Shown here one piece after another: positions 5,242 to 18,562 of a DNA stretch of 33,798 bases. The DNA is taken from the IMG/VR virus record IMGVR_UViG_3300002092_000122, positions 1 through 33,798 of that record. One strand, given 5' to 3'. This stretch comes from a virus. Lineage: Duplodnaviria; Caudoviricetes. How positions within the stretch are numbered: position 1 is the stretch's first letter; each line of letters starts with the position of its first letter. A program made the translations under genes and the position numbers. The notes beneath the pieces were generated by a model. That model saw nothing but the letters and a program-made list of their open reading frames with translations, had not been told where the DNA came from and did no database searches.

Positions 5242-5746
5242 CATACAAAATGATGAAGTAATCGGGCAAATGCTTTTTGATAAAGCAAAAACCGAATATC
5301 CGTATCTTGCAAATCAAGATATTGCATTTAAGTACACCCCTTCAGAAAATCCAGAATACATGCTTGAGCATTATCAAGGCGAGGACATTCCGGATTGGGG
5401 AAAGGGCAGAAAACAAGCTATTGAAGTGTTCAATACCAAAACAAGCCCATTGGATATTCTGGGGGATGCAGTAAGCCATTACGGTGTTAATTCCGATCCG
5501 CAATTACAGGCTTTGTACCAACAGTTTTCCGGTCAATTGGATCCGGCAATGATGCAACAACGGTATCAATATCATGCTGACAATTTAGGGGAAAAACGCC
5601 CTTACGATCAATGGTATCAATCTACCGGACTTCCTGAAATGTTTAGGGGTTATACATTTAACCAATGGGATAATGCTAAATCCATGTACACCCCCGAACA
5701 ATTGCAAACATTGGATGCAGTTCGTTCTTACTTAAAAATCAAGTAA
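5231..5746 (+). CDS. hypothetical protein
   Basis: 171 aa, last + strand gene, converging on the early arm. Confidence 0.65.
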   Translation: MPDDIQNDEVIGQMLFDKAKTEYPYLANQDIAFKYTPSENPEYMLEHYQGEDIPDWGKGRKQAIEVFNTKTSPLDILGDAVSHYGVNSDPQLQALYQQFSGQLDPAMMQQRYQYHADNLGEKRPYDQWYQSTGLPEMFRGYTFNQWDNAKSMYTPEQLQTLDAVRSYLKIK

Positions 5747-6473
5747 ACCACTCGCAATAATCATATACCGCTTGATTGCAAATAGATTCTTGCATTGGTG
5801 TAGTGGCTAGAATATCAAAATACCACATGGTTATGTCACTATGCCCCCGTTTCATGCGCCAAATGTAATCCATCATTTGCCGTATCTGGTGTACGTTGTT
5901 GGTTTTGCAAACAAACTCACCAAAATTATCAAATAGATAAAAAGCTGTATAGCCCTTAGTCATTAAAAACTCGGGTATCTGGATGAATTGCGTGTACTGT
6001 TCTTGATTTCGATAATCCGCCTCAAAATAAATCAATGGCGTAATCTTGTAGGAAAAACTCCGCAATATATCCCAATCAAAACCATCCGTATCGGTCTTAA
6101 TGAGGCTTGTATCGTTCAATAACTCATGCGTAAAAAGGGTGTCCATTGGCACACCTACCCTACCGATTTTGCCTCTGAAAGTATCAATTTGCGCTTTTGG
6201 AAACACATTTAGAAGTTCACCTTTATTGTGTTCCAAAATGTCGTAAACCTTCTGTTCCATTTCACAACACAAAAACTTCAATTCGGGGTTATTGGCAAGC
6301 ATGGCGGCAAGTAGCAGACCGCAATTGGATCCAATGTCCACTATTCGCCCATTAAGGTACTTTGCAAAAAACGGTAAGAATCTATCGTACAGTTTGTGCT
6401 TTTGCTGATAGTGGGGTATTAGATTGCCGTTGTTTACCTTTAGTTTTAGGTCTGCTATCTCCATGTTACGCAC
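5739..6473 (-). CDS. FkbM-family SAM-dependent methyltransferase
   Basis: IVDIGSNCG (motif I), LIKTDTDGFD and IYFE motifs. Confidence 0.75.
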   Translation of the reverse strand: MRNMEIADLKLKVNNGNLIPHYQQKHKLYDRFLPFFAKYLNGRIVDIGSNCGLLLAAMLANNPELKFLCCEMEQKVYDILEHNKGELLNVFPKAQIDTFRGKIGRVGVPMDTLFTHELLNDTSLIKTDTDGFDWDILRSFSYKITPLIYFEADYRNQEQYTQFIQIPEFLMTKGYTAFYLFDNFGEFVCKTNNVHQIRQMMDYIWRMKRGHSDITMWYFDILATTPMQESICNQAVYDYCEWFT

Positions 6474-7221
6474 TCGGGGTTAGTTGACCTTCAAACGCAT
6501 ACGTGCCAACATGGGCAAATTGCGCCCAAGGTGCCGCATACACTTTACCCCCCGCTTTACGCCAAATGTAGCAAAAATGGTAATCTTCCGATAACAGGCG
6601 ATTCGTTTCCGGCTCAATGGAAGTAGCAAAATACTCTTTAATAACTTCCTTATTTTGAATCGTGCCGCTTAAATCCATTACGTCATTACTGTATGACGGT
6701 ACCAAATCCGCTAATTTCTCAAACACTTCCCGCTTAATCAGCATGAATCCGGTACCGGCATTGAATATCTCTGCCGGTTGATTTACGGGTACTTGCACTT
6801 CACCCTGATACCCCACCAAATTGACAACAAATGAGCCGGTATGGTATTTGAGTTGGTCATTGGGTACACCGTTCTCCATTGCCTTTTTAACCGTATCCCA
6901 ATTGATTTCCTTTTTAGGGTACACCCCGCCGATTACATCAACATCAGCATCTATCATGGGGAATACGTCTTGAGGTCTAAACCGTATGTCTGAATCTATA
7001 AACATAAGGTGCGTAGAATCCGACTTGAGAAAGGCGTGAGCCAATGAGTTACGGGCTCGGGTAATCAAACTCTCGTTAAACATGAAACTGTACGCCGCAT
7101 CAATGCCGGATTTTTGAAACAGATTATTCAATTCTAAAATGGATTGTGCGTAGTAACCATGACACATTCCGCCGTACATTGGTGTAGCAATAAAAATCTT
7201 CTTTTTTTTCGTTTCCATCAA
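6466..7221 (-). CDS. GT-A fold glycosyltransferase-like protein
   Basis: IFIATPMYGG, ESLITRARN, FIDSDI (DxD), GTGFMLIKR and LSEDYHFC motifs. Confidence 0.75.
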   Translation of the reverse strand: MMETKKKKIFIATPMYGGMCHGYYAQSILELNNLFQKSGIDAAYSFMFNESLITRARNSLAHAFLKSDSTHLMFIDSDIRFRPQDVFPMIDADVDVIGGVYPKKEINWDTVKKAMENGVPNDQLKYHTGSFVVNLVGYQGEVQVPVNQPAEIFNAGTGFMLIKREVFEKLADLVPSYSNDVMDLSGTIQNKEVIKEYFATSIEPETNRLLSEDYHFCYIWRKAGGKVYAAPWAQFAHVGTYAFEGQLTPSA

Positions 7222-7233
7222 AATCCCCTTTAG

Positions 7234-7353
7234 TTAAAAATCGAATGGTACTACATGGATGCCCTTTGCCGTTATTTTGACAATTTGATATGCGCTTCCC
7301 CGCCTTAAAAAAAAACGACTTTTCCATCGTTTCCAAATGCTTACATTAACCAT
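7234..7353 (-). CDS. 39-aa micro-ORF MVNVSIWKRWKSRFFLRRGSAYQIVKITAKGIHVVPFDF
   Basis: Translated by hand. Fills the gap between the HNH and GT genes, start overlaps the HNH stop, and its N-terminal part is duplicated at 7831-7863. Confidence 0.55.
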   Translation of the reverse strand: MVNVSIWKRWKSRFFLRRGSAYQIVKITAKGIHVVPFDF

Positions 7354-7863
7354 GATTTGCAAACTCCCCATGATATTTATTTCGTGCTTCAATAGCTACT
7401 AATTCAGCAAGTTCAAAATCTGAATATCTCCCAAAACTTAACTTTACTGAATTTAGCCTTAATTCAACCTTCCATTTATTGTTTAATTTATCAAACCAAA
7501 GACCTTTAACACCTGAAGTATTTGTTTTAAAAAGTTTTGCATTTCTGGAATTTTCGCTTGCATTACATTTTCTTAAATTTTCAATTCGATTATCTGATCT
7601 ATTGCCGTTGATATGATCTAAATACTTAGGCAAGTATCCATAGTGCATAAGGAAAATAATTCTATGAGCCCTATACGATGACCTATTAAAACCAACGTTT
7701 ACATATCCATATTTACCAAGATAACCGGCAATTAATCCTATTCTTATTTTTTTGTTTGGCGATACTTTCCAAAACAAAATTCCATTGCGATATTCAAATA
7801 ATTCTTTAGTTTGTGCTTGATTTATCATAAGCTCCCCCGCCCCAAGAAAAATCGGTTTTTCCA
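7294..7863 (-). repeat. imperfect 33-bp direct repeat flanking the HNH gene (7831-7863 and 7294-7326)
   Basis: TGGAAAAACCGATTTTTCTTGGGGCGGGGGAGC vs TGGAAAAGTCGTTTTTTTTTAAGGCGGGGAAGC, 26/33 identical. Confidence 0.75.
7346..7828 (-). CDS. HNH homing endonuclease with AP2-like C-terminal domain
   Basis: AHRIIF..LDHINGNRSDNRIENLR..NTSGVKG..HGEFA. Likely start is ATG 7828 with a GGGGGAG RBS. Markedly AT-rich relative to its flanks. Confidence 0.9.
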   Translation of the reverse strand: MINQAQTKELFEYRNGILFWKVSPNKKIRIGLIAGYLGKYGYVNVGFNRSSYRAHRIIFLMHYGYLPKYLDHINGNRSDNRIENLRKCNASENSRNAKLFKTNTSGVKGLWFDKLNNKWKVELRLNSVKLSFGRYSDFELAELVAIEARNKYHGEFANHG

Positions 7864-7868
7864 GAATT

Positions 7869-8426
7869 TCATAATGGCGTAAACCCGCTTTTTCGCCAAG
7901 GCGTAAACGCAAATGTCGCCTGATACGGATTGGGTTTGGGGTTGACGTTGGAATCGGCTAATGCGTGGATATTCCAACCGTAATTGGACATAGTGCAAGT
8001 ACCATCCCCGTTATCGGTAATCGTGGTTTGTTGAAACAGACCGGCGGCATATACGGTTCGGATACCGGCAATACCATGAACGCCATCGGCAATATCGTTA
8101 TTTCCTTCAACGGTTACAGGGCTATTCCCATCAATGTAGCGCACACAATAACCGTATAAAGGATTGCGATAGAGCCATTTAACCATTGACCAATAACTCT
8201 CGCCATTGACAGTCCTAAACGTATCGTCACCCCACAATGAATTGTCTGGTGTTTGAAACCAGGATAACCACTTAGGCAATCTAGGTTCGTTTAACAACCA
8301 TTTACCATTATTTGTTAATCCAATTTGCATTGTTGCAAATACCGGCAACAACCAACAAAATAAATACGCAATTACCGTAAATATCGCACACCAGAACGCT
8401 AACCACCTGTATTGATTATTCATCAT
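7869..8426 (-). CDS. hypothetical membrane-anchored phage protein
   Basis: N-terminal TM segment and WLSWFQTPDN..GD..WLYRNP motif. Confidence 0.7.
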   Translation of the reverse strand: MMNNQYRWLAFWCAIFTVIAYLFCWLLPVFATMQIGLTNNGKWLLNEPRLPKWLSWFQTPDNSLWGDDTFRTVNGESYWSMVKWLYRNPLYGYCVRYIDGNSPVTVEGNNDIADGVHGIAGIRTVYAAGLFQQTTITDNGDGTCTMSNYGWNIHALADSNVNPKPNPYQATFAFTPWRKSGFTPL

Positions 8427-8806
8427 TCTCTTGCCTTTCTTAGTTCATCCCTTAACTGAATAATTGTTTCAATAGCTACTGTATAAACATCAATCCATCT
8501 TTTAGGGTCAAAAGACTTTTGGCGTAATTCATGCACAACGGAATCTATTTCCTCAACCGTTAATTCACGCATAGGGTGGGTGTAGAGAGGTGTTACATAA
8601 TTTTCCACTTGTGAAGGTCTAACCTTTAGCCATATTTCACGAACCCTTTTTGAAATGAAATCCACTCCATTTTTGTGCATCCAAGCATCAGGCTCTTGCT
8701 TTTCCTCTGTTTGTGGGGTTTGCAATAATCCGTCAAAATCGTGGCATTGTGGCATTCCACCCATAGCGCAACTGCATAAATCTAATTCACATTTTTTCAT
8801 CTTCAT
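8423..8806 (-). CDS. hypothetical protein
   Basis: Cys-rich N-terminus and EPDAWM..TPLYTHP..ELT motif common in phage accessory proteins. Start probably near 8803-8806 by coupling to the upstream stop. Confidence 0.55.
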   Translation of the reverse strand: MKMKKCELDLCSCAMGGMPQCHDFDGLLQTPQTEEKQEPDAWMHKNGVDFISKRVREIWLKVRPSQVENYVTPLYTHPMRELTVEEIDSVVHELRQKSFDPKRWIDVYTVAIETIIQLRDELRKARE

Positions 8807-9450
8807 TCCTTTGGTGGCTCTCCACATATTCTTCTAAGCTGTGTTTCTTGCCCATCCCTAGCAGCCCTAGTAGCATCCCAAGCAGCATTAGCAGAAGCAT
8901 CCCTAGCATAATCAGCAGCAGCAACCCTAGCAGCAGCAGCCCCAACAACAACATACCTAGCATCAGCCCAAGCAGCATCAGCAGCACCCATAGCAGCCCC
9001 AACAGCATCAACAGCAGCCCTAGCATAATCAGCAGCAGCAGCATAAGCAGCCCAAGCAGCATCAGCCCAAGCAGAATCAGCATCAGCAGCAGCATAAGTA
9101 GCCCCAACAGCAGCAGCCCAAGCAACAACCCTAGCAGCAGTTAATTCTTCTTGAGTTGCGTTGCCGTTAGCGAATGCCTCAGACACATCCAATGCCTTAA
9201 TGCTTCTCTCGTCTTTCATTAAATGTTGAACCTGACGAGCGCACCAAACTGCAAACAAACGAATCTTTTTATCTTCGTTTTCTACGGCTCTAAGACACCA
9301 CAAAGCACCATCAAGACCATTAGAGTTTAAGATTGTGATGATTGAAAGTGGTTCGTCATCTGCTTTAGTTTTACCTAAATTTGCTAACAACTTTGACCAT
9401 CCTTGAGCGCATGGTGAGTGTTTGCGTATTTGATTTAATGTTGTGTTCAT
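8803..9450 (-). CDS. Ala-rich repeat protein (AAW/AAR/AAD repeats)
   Basis: AAGGAG RBS. Globular N-terminus (SPCAQGW..ALWCLR..RLFAVWCARQV) followed by ~95 aa of degenerate Ala repeats. Confidence 0.85.
   Translation of the reverse strand: MNTTLNQIRKHSPCAQGWSKLLANLGKTKADDEPLSIITILNSNGLDGALWCLRAVENEDKKIRLFAVWCARQVQHLMKDERSIKALDVSEAFANGNATQEELTAARVVAWAAAVGATYAAADADSAWADAAWAAYAAAADYARAAVDAVGAAMGAADAAWADARYVVVGAAAARVAAADYARDASANAAWDATRAARDGQETQLRRICGEPPKE
8855..9140. repeat. degenerate (AGC)n-based coding repeat tract
   Basis: AGC triplet runs, with an exact 23-nt repeat CCCTAGCATAATCAGCAGCAGCA at 8901-8923 and 9018-9040. Confidence 0.9.
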
Positions 9451-9460
9451 TTCACACTCC

Positions 9461-9525
9461 TTAAATTAGTGCCGGATTACCCTAGTAGTTGTCCGGCGGC
9501 AACCCCTAACTACCTAGCTAATTAA
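9461..9525 (-). ncRNA. putative C4/CI-like antisense RNA (three-way junction)
   Basis: Outer stem AAUUAG/CUAAUU, hairpin GGUAG/UUGCC containing UAGUUAGG, and hairpin GCCGGA/UCCGGC with loop CAACUACUAGGGUAA. Complementary to motifs in early-gene leaders. Confidence 0.6.
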
Positions 9526-9886
9526 CGCTAGATTCCCCTAGAGTTGGTGATAACTCAATTCTGACTACACACATACCGCCAACAACAATACAACCTCTGG
9601 CGATCACAATTTTGGTGATTTGCTTATCATCATCGTAAGCAAAACCAATAAACGAATCTAGGACCGGCTTTAAACAGTTATCAATATCCATCAACCGTTT
9701 ATTTTTTGGGTGCAAGACTACATACACCTCAACCGGCTTATCCCGAAAACCCGCAAGTTTACTTTCCAAAAATATATTGGCAACGTCTTTTTTAAACTGC
9801 ACACCCCGTTTACTAACGTATCTCCGGTGTCCACTTGCTATCCAATAGTTATTAACTGAAGGCGGGTAAGGTAGATTGAATACCAT
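9518..9886 (-). CDS. rusA: RusA-family Holliday junction resolvase
   Basis: LPYPPSVNNYW, DIDNCLKPVLD and DDKQI motifs. Confidence 0.9.
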   Translation of the reverse strand: MVFNLPYPPSVNNYWIASGHRRYVSKRGVQFKKDVANIFLESKLAGFRDKPVEVYVVLHPKNKRLMDIDNCLKPVLDSFIGFAYDDDKQITKIVIARGCIVVGGMCVVRIELSPTLGESSVN

Positions 9887-10042: not shown

Positions 10043-10314
10043 AATGGAATCTCCCCATCATCTTTTTTGTTGGCTACTTCTTTAGGATATTGCTCATTGC
10101 TTTGTGATGGCGGCTTCCAAGTGTCCTCTGACAAGCTGATTAAACTGCCTTTTGGGGTTTGCTTTGTCCAACCAGATATTTTCAATGTCTGACCGGCTTT
10201 GTAATCCTCAGACAGTAAAAGGGTGCCTTTCCAATCCGGTGATTTTTCGCTTGTCTTGCGATCATTTTGGAAAAGTACGCCTTTCCCCATTTGTGCGATA
10301 TGCCCGTTAGCCAT
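10039..10314 (-). CDS. single-stranded DNA-binding protein-like
   Basis: GVLFQN..KSPDWKG..ISGW core and acidic tail DDGEIPF. True start is likely ATG 10314. Confidence 0.7.
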   Translation of the reverse strand: MANGHIAQMGKGVLFQNDRKTSEKSPDWKGTLLLSEDYKAGQTLKISGWTKQTPKGSLISLSEDTWKPPSQSNEQYPKEVANKKDDGEIPF

Positions 10315-11125
10315 TTGCAATTTCCCTTCTGTGGATTGTGAGTTTGGATAAGAATTTAGCCACCTGATTTCCGTCAAATGTTTTTGTAAGGTTTTCATTC
10401 ACTTCACGAAACGCTTGAATTTTGGCATTTTTTTCCTCGGCGTTCATTTTGGTGGATTCGTGAATTTTGGCGTGCAATTCCGCAAACCCGTCAATCCAAT
10501 CATCCACGCAAACGTAGGTTGCGTAGGGTGCATCCTGATTGGGTACATACATTGGATACATACCATCCGGTATATTTTCGGCAATAGCCGATAAATCAAC
10601 GGCATTGGGAATAACCTTGCCCATTTCTTTTGGTGCCGGTTTTATTGGCTCAAAATCAACCACTTCTTCTGGCGCATACATATTACCCAAACAACCAGGA
10701 TAAACCGTTCTAATCCCTTCGGACAAGCAACGGGCTCTAAGCATGGCTCTCGGATACTTTACCCAACCGGAATTGGGTTTAACCAATCCGATTTTTGTTG
10801 CCTGTTCGATTGTCCATGACAATTCCAACGTGCCGCCATTGGGGTGCGAGAAAACGCCGGTAACGCATTGATCGGTGTATTCCTTCCAATTGATTACACC
10901 TCCGGCGCTTTGAAAGCGGGCTTGCATCGAGGCGGATTTTAATGCCGGTCTGCCTAGAATAATGTCATAGTCCCGTACTGCACTTGCAAACGGCAACCCA
11001 TCGGCTTGTGCCACCAAACCCAACGCAATGACCTGATTAACGTCTTTCATGCCAAACAGGTTTGATTTAACCATTGCTTGCGCCATTTGTTCCATATCCC
11101 CGTAGGGTATTAAATCTTTACTCAT
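10307..11125 (-). CDS. RecT/Red-beta-like single-strand annealing protein
   Basis: IILGRPAL..W.KYPRAMLRARCLSEGIRTVYP..LG.MY.PEE motif, clustered with YqaJ and SSB. Confidence 0.75.
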   Translation of the reverse strand: MSKDLIPYGDMEQMAQAMVKSNLFGMKDVNQVIALGLVAQADGLPFASAVRDYDIILGRPALKSASMQARFQSAGGVINWKEYTDQCVTGVFSHPNGGTLELSWTIEQATKIGLVKPNSGWVKYPRAMLRARCLSEGIRTVYPGCLGNMYAPEEVVDFEPIKPAPKEMGKVIPNAVDLSAIAENIPDGMYPMYVPNQDAPYATYVCVDDWIDGFAELHAKIHESTKMNAEEKNAKIQAFREVNENLTKTFDGNQVAKFLSKLTIHRREIANG

Positions 11126-11208
11126 GTTAATTTCTCCAATAAGGTAATAGTTAGGTCAATAATGCTCGTGATTGCCATAATCCATACTGCTATATCAAGG
11201 TGATTCAT
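11122..11208 (-). CDS. 28-aa hydrophobic micro-ORF MNHLDIAVWIMAITSIIDLTITLLEKLT
   Basis: Fills the gap and is ATGA-coupled to the RecT-like gene. Confidence 0.5.
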   Translation of the reverse strand: MNHLDIAVWIMAITSIIDLTITLLEKLT

Positions 11209-12408: not shown

Positions 12409-12730
12409 CTGTAACCTCCATCAATGATTTAATAATTTCCCGATACGTGGTGATCTTTTCTTCCAACGTTTCATTTTCATTTGCTAGAAAAACATTCTCG
12501 CTTTTGGCATCTTTTAATTGCTCGGTCAATTCATCCACTCTTTGCTGAAATTCGTTAATGCCTTTGGAAAGATCGTCAATTTTCTTTTCGCTTGCCTCAT
12601 ATAGTTTTTCAAGAGCAATTAAATTGTGATTGATATTAACAATCTCATTAAAATGAGAATTGTTTATTCTTTTTGATTCTTTTAATTGCTCACGCAATTT
12701 TTCAATCGGGGTTAATTTTTTAGTTGCCAT
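12398..12730 (-). CDS. coiled-coil hypothetical protein
   Basis: Heptad pattern throughout. Likely start is ATG 12730. Confidence 0.65.
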   Translation of the reverse strand: MATKKLTPIEKLREQLKESKRINNSHFNEIVNINHNLIALEKLYEASEKKIDDLSKGINEFQQRVDELTEQLKDAKSENVFLANENETLEEKITTYREIIKSLMEVTDGE

Positions 12731-13019
12731 GATTAGCCCCAAATGGAATTTTTGAAAGATCGTCTAAATCTTCGGATTCTTTAGGTTCAAACCATTTAGC
12801 ATCTTTTCCGCATCCGGTTAGGTCCAGAGTACGGGCTAAACCGGCACTAATGGCAACCGGAATACCATTGACCATATCCATTGGGCGTAATGGTGATAAA
12901 CAGTTATCTACAACAGATTGATAATGGTGGGTTGATGTTGCCCCTATATTTACTTTACTTTCGTACTTTTGAAAGTGTTTGCAATTTACGCAAAACTTTA
13001 ATGGGGTTTGTTCTGACAT
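12720..13019 (-). CDS. Cys-containing hypothetical protein with acidic IPF motif
   Basis: FCVNCKHF..C..CGKDAKWFEPK. AAGGAG RBS. Confidence 0.75.
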   Translation of the reverse strand: MSEQTPLKFCVNCKHFQKYESKVNIGATSTHHYQSVVDNCLSPLRPMDMVNGIPVAISAGLARTLDLTGCGKDAKWFEPKESEDLDDLSKIPFGANHGN

Positions 13020-13063
13020 ATTGATACTCCTTTTGATAGTTAGGTTTGTTACTGCTAGATACC

Positions 13064-13093: not shown

Positions 13094-13246
13094 TTATTTA
13101 TTAGTTGTTGTATTTTTGCTATTTTCAAAAATAACCTGGTTGTGTTCATTAACGTGATACGGCTTACCCGTTTCTTTAGCCTGGATTAAACGCCTCTGTT
13201 CAAATATCCTAAACATTTCATACATTTTTTCCTGGTCTTGATTCAT
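13094..13246 (-). CDS. 50-aa hypothetical protein MNQDQEKMYEMFRIFEQRR...
   Basis: Translated by hand. ATGA-coupled to the DUF551 gene. Confidence 0.55.
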   Translation of the reverse strand: MNQDQEKMYEMFRIFEQRRLIQAKETGKPYHVNEHNQVIFENSKNTTTNK

Positions 13247-13515
13247 TCTTTATCTCTTTCGTCATAAAAACATTGTTCGTCTGCTTCTGCCAAAGTAATT
13301 GGCTCTTGAAGGTTATTTATTTCTTCCTTTGGTGGTTCAGGTAGTGGCATCCAATGGGTTACTTTGCATTGACCAAGAACGGGATATAACCAAGGACTTG
13401 CAAAAGTATTGTGAAACATATACTGCCCCATCACAATGTTCCTATCTTGCGTATAAAGTATTACTTCTGTATAGGCTTCAGGCAACCTACTCTTAACGCT
13501 GATCCAATTATTCAT
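13243..13515 (-). CDS. DUF551-family protein
   Basis: WISVKSRLPE...VTHWMPLPEPP signature. Confidence 0.9.
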   Translation of the reverse strand: MNNWISVKSRLPEAYTEVILYTQDRNIVMGQYMFHNTFASPWLYPVLGQCKVTHWMPLPEPPKEEINNLQEPITLAEADEQCFYDERDKE

Positions 13516-13587
13516 TTAGTACCTCCGTAGTTAGGGTTTTACTACTATACATCTAATCATACTACTCTATTAAAAAAAAGAAAATAC

Positions 13588-13776: not shown

Positions 13777-13789
13777 ATTGACCCCCTTA

Positions 13790-14170
13790 TATAGATTTAA
13801 TATTTTTCACCCAAAGACCCCCCTACCCCACAAATGGAATAGAGAGGGATAGGTTCTCACCCCCGTAAACGGGATAGTCATGCTACGGATTGATTACCGT
13901 ATGCCCCTAGTCTTGACTATGCGACCAGACCGCCGGATTATTCAGGAATTGCACCCTAGCTAGAATCAGCATACCGGCTACCCTTTTCTCCCACGCCATG
14001 AGGTTTACATGCTTATTATCGTATGGGGTACGATTGGGGGCTTAAGCAATAAAAAAAGGGCTTTAAGGATAGCTTTTGCTGAAACGGCTTACGAAATGCC
14101 TCTGATCTCATTTCATAAACCCAAAAACCATCCTTAAAACCCTTAATCGAGTGTTTCAGTCCTCAATAGC
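13790..14170 (-). ncRNA. putative ~380-nt structured RNA / leader
   Basis: No ORF of 60 aa or more. A 36-bp hairpin whose only non-Watson-Crick pairs are G-U on the - strand, several further stems, and an upstream promoter. Confidence 0.6.
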
Positions 14171-14173
14171 CAA

Positions 14174-14204
14174 ATTGTAATCGAAAACAATATAGGTTTG
14201 TCAA
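14174..14204 (-). promoter_or_regulatory. sigma70-type promoter for the structured RNA
   Basis: TTGACA-19-TACAAT (spacer longer than optimal). Confidence 0.5.
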
Positions 14205-14218
14205 TACTTTTTTAAAAT

Positions 14219-14243
14219 AAAAAAATAGCCCCTAGAAGGGGCT
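14219..14243 (-). terminator. intrinsic terminator
   Basis: AGCCCCT/AGGGGCT stem followed by a T run on the - strand, downstream of the first early genes. Confidence 0.75.
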
Positions 14244-14279
14244 TAAAAGGATTGGGTTACTTACCCCTTACCCAATGGG

Positions 14280-14372
14280 TTAAATTGCCATAGCGAGCCA
14301 AATAAGGGCAATTAGGGCAAACATGGAGAGAATCATTAAAAGTTTATCAAGTGGACTATCTTCTTTATACAT
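14280..14372 (-). CDS. 30-aa single-TM micro-protein MYKEDSPLDKLLMILSMFALIALIWLAMAI
   Basis: Translated by hand. GGGGAA RBS. Confidence 0.55.
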   Translation of the reverse strand: MYKEDSPLDKLLMILSMFALIALIWLAMAI

Positions 14373-14373
14373 A

Positions 14374-14567: not shown

Positions 14568-14795
14568 TTAACCCTTTTTAGCCATGTAAGCACAATAATG
14601 GATATACGCCCATTTATTTAAAAAATCACTAATATCCTGACCAATTTTTAATTGGTTTGTTTCCATAACAAAATTGGAGGATGCCGGACAAAAGTGCAAA
14701 TAATCAGTTTGAAAGCCGTCAGTAACGCACCAACCCGTATTATTTTTTCCTACTTGTAACCCGTTAGAAAATTGCTTAATCGTTTTCATAAACAA
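14568..14795 (-). CDS. hypothetical early protein
   Basis: 75 aa, tightly packed in the operon. Confidence 0.6.
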   Translation of the reverse strand: MFMKTIKQFSNGLQVGKNNTGWCVTDGFQTDYLHFCPASSNFVMETNQLKIGQDISDFLNKWAYIHYCAYMAKKG

Positions 14796-15004
14796 TACCT
14801 AACATTAACGCCAGCTTGTTTTTTGTAACCATTCCAGGCGGAATTTGCTCTAAAATTTGCAATTCTATAAACTTTTTTCCAATCTTGTATTTTTTCTTCC
14901 TGACAAAAATCATAAATAGCCCTTTTCTCATCTCCACAAAAATCCCTTGTATTGATAATTAGTTCTACGGCATTTTCAATAACTTTTTTCGATATATAAC
15001 TCAT
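14786..15004 (-). CDS. hypothetical early protein
   Basis: 72 aa, GGAGG RBS. Confidence 0.65.
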   Translation of the reverse strand: MSYISKKVIENAVELIINTRDFCGDEKRAIYDFCQEEKIQDWKKVYRIANFRANSAWNGYKKQAGVNVRYCL

Positions 15005-15036
15005 AAAATCCTCCGATTAGTTAGGTTAAGACTTGC

Positions 15037-15090: not shown

Positions 15091-15960
15091 TTAAGCCGCT
15101 TTTTGATTGGTAATTGCATCCAATTCATTGATAAAATTGGCGGATTTTTGGGCTAAAGCGGCGGCATTAAATATCGCCTTATTATCTTCTTTTAGGCACT
15201 TTAACCATGAGGCGATATAGTTGCTATGTTGCAATTCCCCTTGAATGCCATAATCAGCACAAAGAAAAGCCGCCCCCATTTCAGCAACCAATTCCTCAAA
15301 AGCATAGGCGGTATCAGCAAAGCGCTTACCCTTGGTACGATCTAGCCTATGTTTTGCACCAGACCAATGGGTTAACTCATGCAACAACGTGCCGTAATAA
15401 TGGGATTCAGTTAAGAACGTTTCTTTTTCCGGCATCGTGATTGAATCGGTAGATGGCATGTAAAACGCTCTACCCCCGCCATGTTTGATATTGGCGCCCG
15501 TTTTAATAACCCGATCTTCCAGAGCCGGTACAGGGTTAAATTCAGCAATGATCGGTTTTGGTTTTTCAATTTCAATACCATCAACCTGATCTATATTGAA
15601 AACATAGTACGTCTTGAGTAGGTTGTACGCTAATAATTCAGGGTGCGTATCGGTTGCTTTAATCTCTTTTTTAGCGACTTTAGAGTAGAAAACGACTTGA
15701 GTGCCTTTTTCGCCCTTTTTAACAGTCCCGCCTAAATCTTCCCATTGTTTGTAACTAGCCCAAATCGGTTGAGAATATCCAGACATTCCTAGAATCAGTC
15801 TGTTAATACCCTGATAGGGTTTTTTACTAATGGCGTTCTTATCTTCATTAGAGCCACCCACCCAAGGCTTTATCCAAGGTGTTACCCCTTTTTCCAATTG
15901 TTCGATAATCCGATTAGTAACGCTATCGTAAACGTTAGGTCTTACTTGATTCTTTTCCAT
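15091..15960 (-). CDS. ardC: ArdC-family antirestriction protein (ssDNA-binding domain plus zincin metallopeptidase)
   Basis: IIEQLEKGVTPWIKPW, YQGIN, W.SYKQW, VKKGEKG, VFN, LLHELTHW and YAFEELVAE. Confidence 0.9.
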   Translation of the reverse strand: MEKNQVRPNVYDSVTNRIIEQLEKGVTPWIKPWVGGSNEDKNAISKKPYQGINRLILGMSGYSQPIWASYKQWEDLGGTVKKGEKGTQVVFYSKVAKKEIKATDTHPELLAYNLLKTYYVFNIDQVDGIEIEKPKPIIAEFNPVPALEDRVIKTGANIKHGGGRAFYMPSTDSITMPEKETFLTESHYYGTLLHELTHWSGAKHRLDRTKGKRFADTAYAFEELVAEMGAAFLCADYGIQGELQHSNYIASWLKCLKEDNKAIFNAAALAQKSANFINELDAITNQKAA

Positions 15961-16002
15961 ATTGATTCCTTTAGTTAGGTGAAAGGTTTACTACTGCTAT
16001 TG

Positions 16003-17186: not shown

Positions 17187-17402
17187 ATGACTATTAAAAT
17201 CGAAACAAAAATTCCGTTACCCCCTGAGAAAAGGCGCAATGTGTACCCATATAAGGTGATGGAGGTCAACGACAGTTTTTTCGTGGAAGGCGGGAAGTTG
17301 CAAATTGTCTGTAATGCCAATTACCGAGCCAAAAAACAATTGGGCAAGACGTTTATTGCCCGCAAACAGGATGGAGGGGTACGAGTATGGAGAACGGCAT
17401 AG
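17187..17402 (+). CDS. small putative DNA-binding protein
   Basis: IETKIPLP..YPY..MEVNDSFFV..GVRVWR motif. GGAGG RBS, first gene of the late arm. Confidence 0.75.
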   Translation: MTIKIETKIPLPPEKRRNVYPYKVMEVNDSFFVEGGKLQIVCNANYRAKKQLGKTFIARKQDGGVRVWRTA

Positions 17403-17596: not shown

Positions 17597-17843
17597 TGCC
17601 ACGCCAAAAGTATTGAAGGATTTGCATGAGAATCGGGTTGCCTTCAAAACGGAAATGCTCAAGGCGATTGCGTGCAAAACCGATGCTCAAAAAGTGGCGT
17701 TGGCGAAAGAGTGGCGGGAAAAGTACAACACCATCTTCTACCGAGAGTTGATTGCGATGGCGAAAGACCACAAGAATCGGCTGAAGGTGGCGTATTGGGA
17801 TTTGCCAAACTTTGATGAAAAACGGGTGGGAAAAACGATATGA
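17580..17843 (+). CDS. hypothetical protein
   Basis: ATGA-coupled to the GT2 gene. Start uncertain. Confidence 0.6.
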   Translation: MVPNTNATPKVLKDLHENRVAFKTEMLKAIACKTDAQKVALAKEWREKYNTIFYRELIAMAKDHKNRLKVAYWDLPNFDEKRVGKTI

Positions 17844-18562
17844 AAAGCGTAGCCGTAGTAACGGTAACCAATGGAAACCGAACACCAGAACTGATCCATT
17901 GCGTAAATAAACTTGACGTGCAAACGTATCCGGTGATGCACTACATTTTGTGTGACGGGGATTTTGAAACCTTTTTAAGAACCCGCAAACGGTTTGAATC
18001 CCCGACCAGACGGGTATGCTATTGGGATGCGTTCATTGGCGGCAAGGACCTTGAAGGGCGTAAGTGGTTAGCCGCCGCACCCATGATGGTCAACGAGGAC
18101 ATTACCCTATTTTGCAATGACGATGATTGGTACAAACCGGACCATGTGGAAACTATCGTGGATAAAATTGAATCGGGGTATGATTGGGCGTATAGCTTTC
18201 GGTCTATCCATGACAAAGAGGGGCATTTTTTGTTTGACGACAATTGCGAGGCGTTGGGCGAGGCTAGTAGCGCATGGAATCTGCCAGGGCATCATTTTGT
18301 GGATTGGTGCATGTGGGGGATGCTCACTTCCAAACTGCGGAACATTTCAAGCATTTTGGCGGAAAAAGGCTATGGCATTGACCGGCAGTTTTACCAATTG
18401 GCGAAACAGGTGTACCCCAATTTCACCGGAACCAATCAGCACACTTTTTGTTTTCGATTGGGCGGAAACGCCTATTCCGTACAGGAACAATTCTTTATTG
18501 AAGGCAATGCGTTCATGCGGGAGAGGTACAACAACCGTTTGCCTTGGCTAAAGTATGAGTGA
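17840..18562 (+). CDS. GT2-family glycosyltransferase
   Basis: VAVVTVT..QTYP..HYILCDG..FCNDDDWY..DRQF. Immediately upstream of the terminase. Confidence 0.8.
   Translation: MKSVAVVTVTNGNRTPELIHCVNKLDVQTYPVMHYILCDGDFETFLRTRKRFESPTRRVCYWDAFIGGKDLEGRKWLAAAPMMVNEDITLFCNDDDWYKPDHVETIVDKIESGYDWAYSFRSIHDKEGHFLFDDNCEALGEASSAWNLPGHHFVDWCMWGMLTSKLRNISSILAEKGYGIDRQFYQLAKQVYPNFTGTNQHTFCFRLGGNAYSVQEQFFIEGNAFMRERYNNRLPWLKYE

Follow-up and report, generated by a model that had tools for sequence, protein, structure and literature searches.

The stretch of DNA analysed here (hereafter, the window; 33,798 nucleotides) is the whole of the 33.8-kb virus record IMGVR_UViG_3300002092_000122, a member of the Caudoviricetes whose genome is estimated by CheckV to be 95% complete. 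Its leftward early region comprises ardC and the genes for a YqaJ/RecE-like exonuclease, a RecT-like protein, SSB and RusA, and its rightward region encodes terminase, portal, capsid and tail proteins along with holins. The close relatives are uncultured viruses: the sole close GenBank records are MW202753 and MW202825, and there is no cultured close relative among GenBank phages. Across the 11 genomes compared, 17 protein families are common to all, and a 71-aa DUF7303-like protein encoded at the head of the late region (17187-17402, plus strand), a candidate regulator, is likewise present in all 11. The distal early region includes an HNH endonuclease gene with a weak AP2-domain match (7346-7912, minus strand). 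A long gap at 13777-14373, which holds no ORF of 45 aa but does hold a terminator-like hairpin (14227-14243), is a possible origin or a further RNA. Glycosyltransferase- and methyltransferase-like genes (5739-7221 and 17840-18562), together with the annotation of the gene after rusA in MW202753 as dpG-synthase-like, hint at DNA modification.

Five early genes of the window share a leader motif, the 8-mer CCTAACTA (in RNA form, CCUAACUA), which lies on the minus strand just 5' of the SD sequence, and a single inverted copy of the motif follows rusA at 9505-9512. The predicted targets and the gene flanking the inverted copy are as follows:

9518..9886, minus strand: rusA, Holliday-junction resolvase (PF05866, E 4.5e-12; phrog_34), the 3' end of which overlaps the RNA element
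11148..11155, minus strand: predicted target CCUAACUA before the RecT-like gene (10307-11125)
13037..13044, minus strand: predicted target before a 99-aa ORF (12720-13019)
13528..13535, minus strand: predicted target before a DUF551 gene (13243-13515), top of 63 leaders
15018..15025, minus strand: predicted target before a 72-aa ORF (14786-15004)
15972..15979, minus strand: predicted target before ardC (15091-15960)

Only 0.6 copies of the 8-mer would be expected, and the maximum was 4 in 200 simulations under a first-order Markov model of the window; all five sites stand before early genes, in 5 of the 29 leaders on the minus strand versus 0 of the 34 on the plus strand. A preliminary description of this locus had proposed that the seed at the inverted copy is perfectly complementary to all five sites, and this holds, as does the extent of pairing given there, with 10 possible pairs at 13528 and 10, counting G-U pairs, at 13037 and 11148. 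Ranked by duplex energy with the seed region, the five motif leaders come 1, 2, 4, 6 and 7 of 63. The same description assigned a second element, UAG(C/U)AGU, to all five leaders; it is present, as TAG(C/T)AGT, in four of them (11186, 13051, 13541 and 15993) and absent at 15018. The shorter G(C/T)AGT occurs in 97 of 272 target leaders versus 146 of 1481 others, a -10-like hexamer in 50 of 272 versus 40 of 1481, and where both are present the hexamer most often lies 6-7 nt before G(C/T)AGT. We consider G(C/T)AGT more likely to signal where transcripts begin than to be a second site for a seed, in which case the targets would mostly be first genes of early transcripts.

The inverted copy is embedded in a structured RNA that starts within the coding end of rusA and overlaps the rusA stop. 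Its strand order is 5' tail, P1, an optional P2, the junction seed, P3 (the loop of which pairs with the 3' tail), the 3' strand of P1, the pseudoknot strand and AC:

9469..9556, minus strand: structured RNA element (5' tail, P1, P2, P3, pseudoknot and conserved AC), with approximate ends
9545..9556, minus strand: 5' tail; in most relatives rich in C and U and complementary to the SD, but matching the SD poorly in this phage
9538..9544, minus strand: P1 5' strand ACUCUAG; compensatory change in 7 of 7 pairs, 99.2% paired (95.4% in the unfitted alignment)
9512..9533, minus strand: P2 hairpin AUCUAGC/GCUAGGU with an 8-nt loop, containing the rusA stop
9505..9511, minus strand: junction seed AGUUAGG, which together with 9512 forms the 8-mer UAGUUAGG
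9487..9504, minus strand: P3 hairpin GGUUG/CAACU, its loop bearing the pseudoknot strand GCCGGA (9492-9497)
9479..9485, minus strand: P1 3' strand CUAGGGU, overlapping ACUACUA
9471..9476, minus strand: 3' strand of the pseudoknot, UCCGGC, then the conserved AC; 89.0% paired

A seed-agnostic descriptor of this fold has a single match in the whole window, both strands considered, and the CM match covers 9463-9556. In 74 CM-aligned rows, the helices are 90.0% paired versus 65.9% after shuffling, the covariation score is 0.632 versus 0.247, and compensatory changes are seen at 22 of 23 pairs. Although left out of the CM, the pseudoknot helix is still 89.0% paired, with compensatory changes in 5 of its 6 pairs; an unfitted 23-row MAFFT alignment gives 82.6% pairing versus 68.3% shuffled (pair counts throughout are from alignments made with model R2 or MAFFT). 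By these comparative measures, the RNA family is real, and it is absent from Rfam: no Rfam 15 family reaches its gathering threshold on the element in searches of the window and of 17 related loci, and the C4 family, to which the preliminary description had pointed, gave no match at E≤5 in the former or at E≤1 in the latter.

The only Rfam match that passes is a tRNA gene just before rusA in locus L019 (4271-4344, plus strand), away from the element. Window matches to isrG and mir-365 are sub-threshold, the former arising in the gene directly 3' of the RNA (8803-9450, minus strand), which has a long Ala-rich repeat region (phrog_18326); also sub-threshold is a Betaproteobacteria_toxic_sRNA match in L343 (7433-7498, minus strand; 41.8 bits versus a cut-off of 50).

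The conserved fold is not the one originally drawn, a 65-nt minus-strand junction with an outer stem AAUUAG/CUAAUU and a GCCGGA/UCCGGC hairpin displaying ACUACUA. That structure is the minimum free energy (MFE) fold but an unremarkable one (z = -0.87; 35 of 200 shuffles fold as well), and in relatives its outer stem is paired in 54.5% of cells versus 56.6% when shuffled. GCCGGA and UCCGGC do pair, as the pseudoknot helix instead, and ACUACUA, rather than forming a free loop, runs across the 3' strands of both P3 and P1. If the pseudoknot is left out, the MFE structure of the window RNA offers an alternative helix between the seed and the P1 5' strand, in which the seed is hidden. A promoter scan was no richer than chance; no promoter or terminator can be assigned, and the element carries no intrinsic terminator or U-tail. 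Two other roles were considered and rejected: a stop-codon recoding signal, because the rusA stop lies at differing positions and in differing frames relative to the fold, and an HDV-like or pistol ribozyme, the topologies of which do not fit the strand order, while the conserved junction covaries with the targets.

Relatives were gathered through their RusA, RecT-like and exonuclease proteins. Among the 357 loci examined, 255 have a RusA match, 23 of them truncated. The descriptor finds the element in 179 loci (77 distinct cores; the match in L031 is false) and not in 53, of which 10 carry it on inspection and 3 are distant RusA genes, giving a final tally of 188 loci with and 40 without the RNA among 232 untruncated ones. 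Some short and divergent variants escape model R2 (8 of 82 sources), and so the descriptor served as a further check on absences; 116 new loci fetched by pattern (L140-L255), many of them unrelated chance matches, are excluded from all counts. Each of the five complete RNA-bearing genomes contains exactly one copy. Minimal variants of ~50 nt that lack P2 (L108, L181, L120, L273 and L320) occur in at least two parts of the tree.

Comparative evidence on function comes from natural changes of the seed. Leaders were called with our own ORF finder, an SD-like 4-mer being required, and were de-duplicated by sequence. In these counts, the fractions of which are lowered by spurious ORFs and which are not independent, as the loci are kin, CCUAAC occurs in 192 of 1242 distinct leaders where the seed is GUUAGG. 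With the seed GUUAGA, UCUAAC is found in 20 of 93 leaders and CCUAAC in none; with GUUGAG, CUCAAC in 7 of 87 and CCUAAC in none; and with AUUAGG, CCUAAU in 18 of 147 and CCUAAC in 4. Overall, the match rate is 0.159 for the cognate seed versus 0.011 for a different seed (61 clusters). The covariation with leaders that the preliminary description looked to relatives for is borne out in 7 of 8 seed-change groups, in which the cognate hexamer is the commonest of six (L030, with seed GUUAAG and UCUAAC leaders, is discordant; in the L013 group the match comes from 1 of 7 leaders, and those of L120 and L320 may go back to one origin). The changed seeds sit at separate places on a quick single-gene tree of the exonuclease (80 rows). 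In L363, the seed keeps its G, yet 10 leaders have CCUAAU versus 4 with CCUAAC, and the sister locus L366 has A, which looks like a path from G-C through G-U to A-U; the commonest single variant of CCUAAC is this same G-U-compatible CCUAAU (34 leaders). As read from aligned relatives, the comparative evidence for multi-target antisense action is unusually direct, and one core of the preliminary description, a structured RNA after rusA with an exposed GUUAG(G) seed complementary to dispersed early-gene leaders, stands on this covariation.

Relatives without the RNA largely lose the leader motif, to judge from the same leader counts: CCUAAC is present in 5 of 277 leaders (1.8%) of the 40 RNA-less loci versus 15.5% of leaders in RNA-bearing loci with the GUUAGG seed. 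The three complete RNA-less genomes have no CM match and no element-like descriptor match, and the motif stands in 3 of their 85 early leaders; G001 and G003 retain one CCUAAC leader each, and complete RNA-less MW202825 has it in 0 of 19 listed leaders. In the RNA-less lineage L261-L270, several early leaders share UCAAUCAGG or a UCAGG-like motif ~25 nt before the start, for which no matching structured RNA was found in the complete genome G002.

By their leader sequences, the predicted targets are gene-specific. The cognate motif precedes 28 of 53 distinct recT-like leaders (GUUAGG class), 19 of 30 ardC leaders and 15 of 16 leaders homologous to that of the 99-aa ORF, and is rare or absent before the exonuclease (6 of 83), SSB (0 of 30) and rusA (0 of 45). 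In eight RNA-bearing genomes, it occurs in 27 of 222 early-strand versus 4 of 368 opposite-strand leaders (G011 being scored with two hexamers). Two RNA-bearing genomes, G005 and G009, have only one target each among ORFs of at least 45 aa.

The seed is not the sole candidate contact. In most relatives, the 12 nt before P1 are CU-rich, and pairing of this 5' tail with the SD region of target leaders is stronger for cognate than for non-cognate combinations (-6.97 versus -5.60 kcal/mol; 50 clusters, with 0 of 5000 permutations as strong). The effect persists within each of the two large clades and when every sublineage is represented by a single cluster, and it is absent for non-target leaders of the same genomes (p = 0.18). 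A tail on the SD and a seed on the site 5' of it is the order that fits antiparallel pairing. Of the two seeds proposed in the preliminary description, the junction seed is retained, whereas ACUACUA, which varies freely and has no cognate leader match (p = 0.19, 55 clusters), gives way to the CU-rich tail where that is present. The 3' tail as a third contact is weak (-0.33 kcal/mol, p = 0.003, with no non-target control), and a trade-off between seed length and tail strength is not significant (p = 0.18). A cis interaction between the seed and the tail immediately 3' of the pseudoknot was also considered and found no support. The window sublineage (the window, L046, L066, L395, L406 and L435) ranks 50-51 of 52 for the tail/SD match, and no other segment of its RNA stands out as a second contact. 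For the window phage, the complementarity apparent in the sequence is that of the 8-10-nt seed only, so that this duplex would have to carry the effect.

These observations are best read as a two-contact antisense RNA, the SD contact of which would be weak in the window sublineage. We propose that the 3' end of rusA encodes a pseudoknotted RNA that is likely a trans-acting antisense repressor of early-gene translation. Either excision from the early transcript or an internal promoter would yield the RNA, and its compact fold would let it persist. Its junction seed would pair at CUAAC-type sites lying 5' of the SD, the tail would bind the SD itself where it fits, and 30S subunits would thereby be kept off the genes that open the early transcripts (ardC, the recT-like gene and small ORFs). 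Since it is encoded at the distal end of the early operon, the RNA would accumulate late, providing delayed negative feedback in a phage without integrase. This course as a whole, in which a stable RNA set free from the distal early transcript would pair in trans, block 30S loading and bring about a delayed shut-off of early genes, appears to us the probable one.

Covariation is blind to the sign of regulation, and the RNA might pair with the same leaders yet activate or stabilise them, for instance by protecting short 5' ends against nuclease attack or as an adaptor that assists ribosome loading at non-canonical SDs. Many target SD regions are indeed of the GGGG or GAGGC type, and in the window sublineage the SD would stay free. 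In most lineages, however, the tail pairs with the SD region itself, and pairing there competes with 16S rRNA; furthermore, the RNA is encoded downstream of its targets and so would be made after them. We regard activation or stabilisation as rather unlikely, if the most credible of the alternatives to repression.

Pairing could instead act on transcription, by premature termination or by binding the promoter-proximal non-template DNA strand. The target leaders are promoter-proximal, as seen in the enrichment of the -10-like hexamer and of G(C/T)AGT given above, and termination is the mechanism of P4 CI (PMC4825925). The centring of the second contact on the SD region and the G-U compatibility of the commonest variant nevertheless point to RNA-RNA pairing at translation starts, which leaves an effect on transcription improbable; termination could still follow from a translation block.

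Similarly improbable is that the element serves in cis, in processing or stability of the rusA end or as the leader of the next gene, with CUAAC being an independent translational enhancer or protein-binding site. The element lies 10-30 nt before the next SD, some downstream leaders have a CUAAC-like site, a few RNA-less genomes retain CCUAAC, and enhancers just 5' of the SD are known. Against this, seed-to-downstream pairing shows no compensatory change (68.4% versus 68.5%), the tail has no cognate advantage for the SD of the downstream gene (p = 0.67), and the downstream gene itself varies. An independent motif would not follow the seed in 7 of 8 seed-change groups, and no protein family among the 11 genomes (considering families in at least 5) is confined to those bearing the RNA, in keeping with the protein-free circuit envisaged in the preliminary description.

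The role first assigned to this circuit, standing in for a missing CI repressor, is not upheld. A lysogeny role is unsupported, because no integrase was found in this genome or in five relatives and no HTH_3 protein in those five, and the genome scan gave no isolate prophage, only four contigs within MAGs. These contigs (L389-L392) belong to this phage family, bear four unrelated taxonomic labels and are probably mis-binned virus DNA. No antirepressor match was found in PHROGs or Pfam. Plasmid-type lysogeny may still occur. The original version of the circuit, a 65-nt C4-like RNA that replaces CI in lysogeny through the seeds UAGUUAGG and ACUACUA, agrees with the MFE fold and with TAG(C/T)AGT in 4 of 5 leaders but can practically be set aside, given its unsupported outer stem, an ACUACUA that is paired and does not covary, the lack of an Rfam C4 match, and searches that found no integrase here or in the five relatives and no HTH_3 protein in the latter.

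Returning to repression by a two-contact antisense RNA, a more far-reaching form of it has, in our estimate, about an even chance of being correct: a new class of compact, reprogrammable antisense RNA, in which a 50-75-nt pseudoknotted scaffold would fix the geometry of the junction seed and the anti-SD tail and, with no dedicated protein, would be the master timer by which phages of a family without integrase turn off an early regulon of scattered genes. If true, this would account for motifs that stand at gene starts and have a lone inverted copy, the start-associated sequences (SAS) of mycobacteriophages among them. The natural seed variants GUUAGG, GUUAGA, GUUGAG and AUUAGG are ready-made cognate and non-cognate pairs, making the mechanism directly testable in reporters, and the 50-nt minimal form with its two programmable arms would be a useful synthetic repressor scaffold.

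In strand order, the element resembles flaviviral xrRNA, with a three-way junction plus a pseudoknot between a hairpin loop and the 3' tail and a 1-2-nt linker. The ring-like fold of xrRNAs blocks 5'-3' exonucleases; xrRNAs are not known as antisense RNAs, and nuclease resistance of the present element is, by this analogy, only a hypothesis. The literature searched, which includes the accessible parts of PMC2864571, PMC12197685, PMC10690425 and 10.64898/2026.10.21.760802 and in which subscription papers are mostly not represented, holds no description of the element, a fragment of which may be catalogued without function in the alignment files of PMC10690425 or the supplement of PMC5737381. 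Like the bacterial 3'-UTR-derived multi-target base-pairing sRNAs (PMC4825925), the RNA would come from an mRNA 3' end and combine a short seed with many targets; unlike them, it has a pseudoknot and no intrinsic terminator or U-tail, and its predicted targets are the phage's own genes. An analogy of pattern, and of pattern only, is with the SAS of Cluster K mycobacteriophages, an asymmetric motif that stands in one orientation before many non-structural genes and has a single inverted copy, which is not at a gene start; its function, as RNA or protein, and the inverted copy were left open by the authors (PMC3203893). The SAS is 13 bp long and contains the SD, whereas CCUAACUA lies 5' of a variable SD, and the inverted copy here sits in a covarying fold and tracks its targets, while the passages of PMC3203893 consulted report no structured RNA or covariation. 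The open SAS question becomes testable in the same way.

The element also has points in common with P4 CI, which is part of a longer phage transcript and base-pairs with early RNA at short complementary sites; CI pairs with flanking seqA and seqC sites and terminates transcription for immunity (PMC4825925). The predicted targets here lie 1.6-6.5 kb upstream, at separate translation starts; some relatives have a CUAAC-like site in the next leader. A functional counterpart is C4 of P1/P7, described as three stem-loops, of which one pairs through its loop at the RBS and another pairs upstream, conferring specificity (PMC5320573, PMC8546580). Like C4 (RF01695), the element is a small RNA of phage origin whose helices meet at a junction and which exposes two short segments, one for the RBS and one upstream for specificity, and, as in C4, its specificity shifts by compensatory seed/target changes. 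Bipartite pairing, by which C4 is recognised, is seen here as family-wide covariation, with a weak SD contact in the window sublineage; RNase P processing to about 77 nt is a further mark of C4. In C4, both pairing segments lie in loops of P1-P3 (PMC5320573), whereas the present RNA has four helices including a pseudoknot, a dispensable P2, a paired P3 loop and an SD contact made by the 5' tail rather than a loop, and it gives no CM match. C4 controls an antirepressor operon, whereas up to 8 dispersed leaders per genome are predicted targets here, and no parallel to the lysogeny or immunity operon of C4 and P4 CI was seen, the searches having found no integrase in this genome or five relatives, no HTH_3 protein in those five and no antirepressor match in PHROGs or Pfam. 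On the strength of its pairing pattern, the RNA works like P1 C4, but it is not a member of that family, since it departs from C4 in CM, fold and context. The phage antisense repressors compared here, P1 C4 and P4 CI, guard a lysogeny operon; the RNA at the end of rusA would extend antisense repression in phages to a different fold and a regulon of separate early genes.
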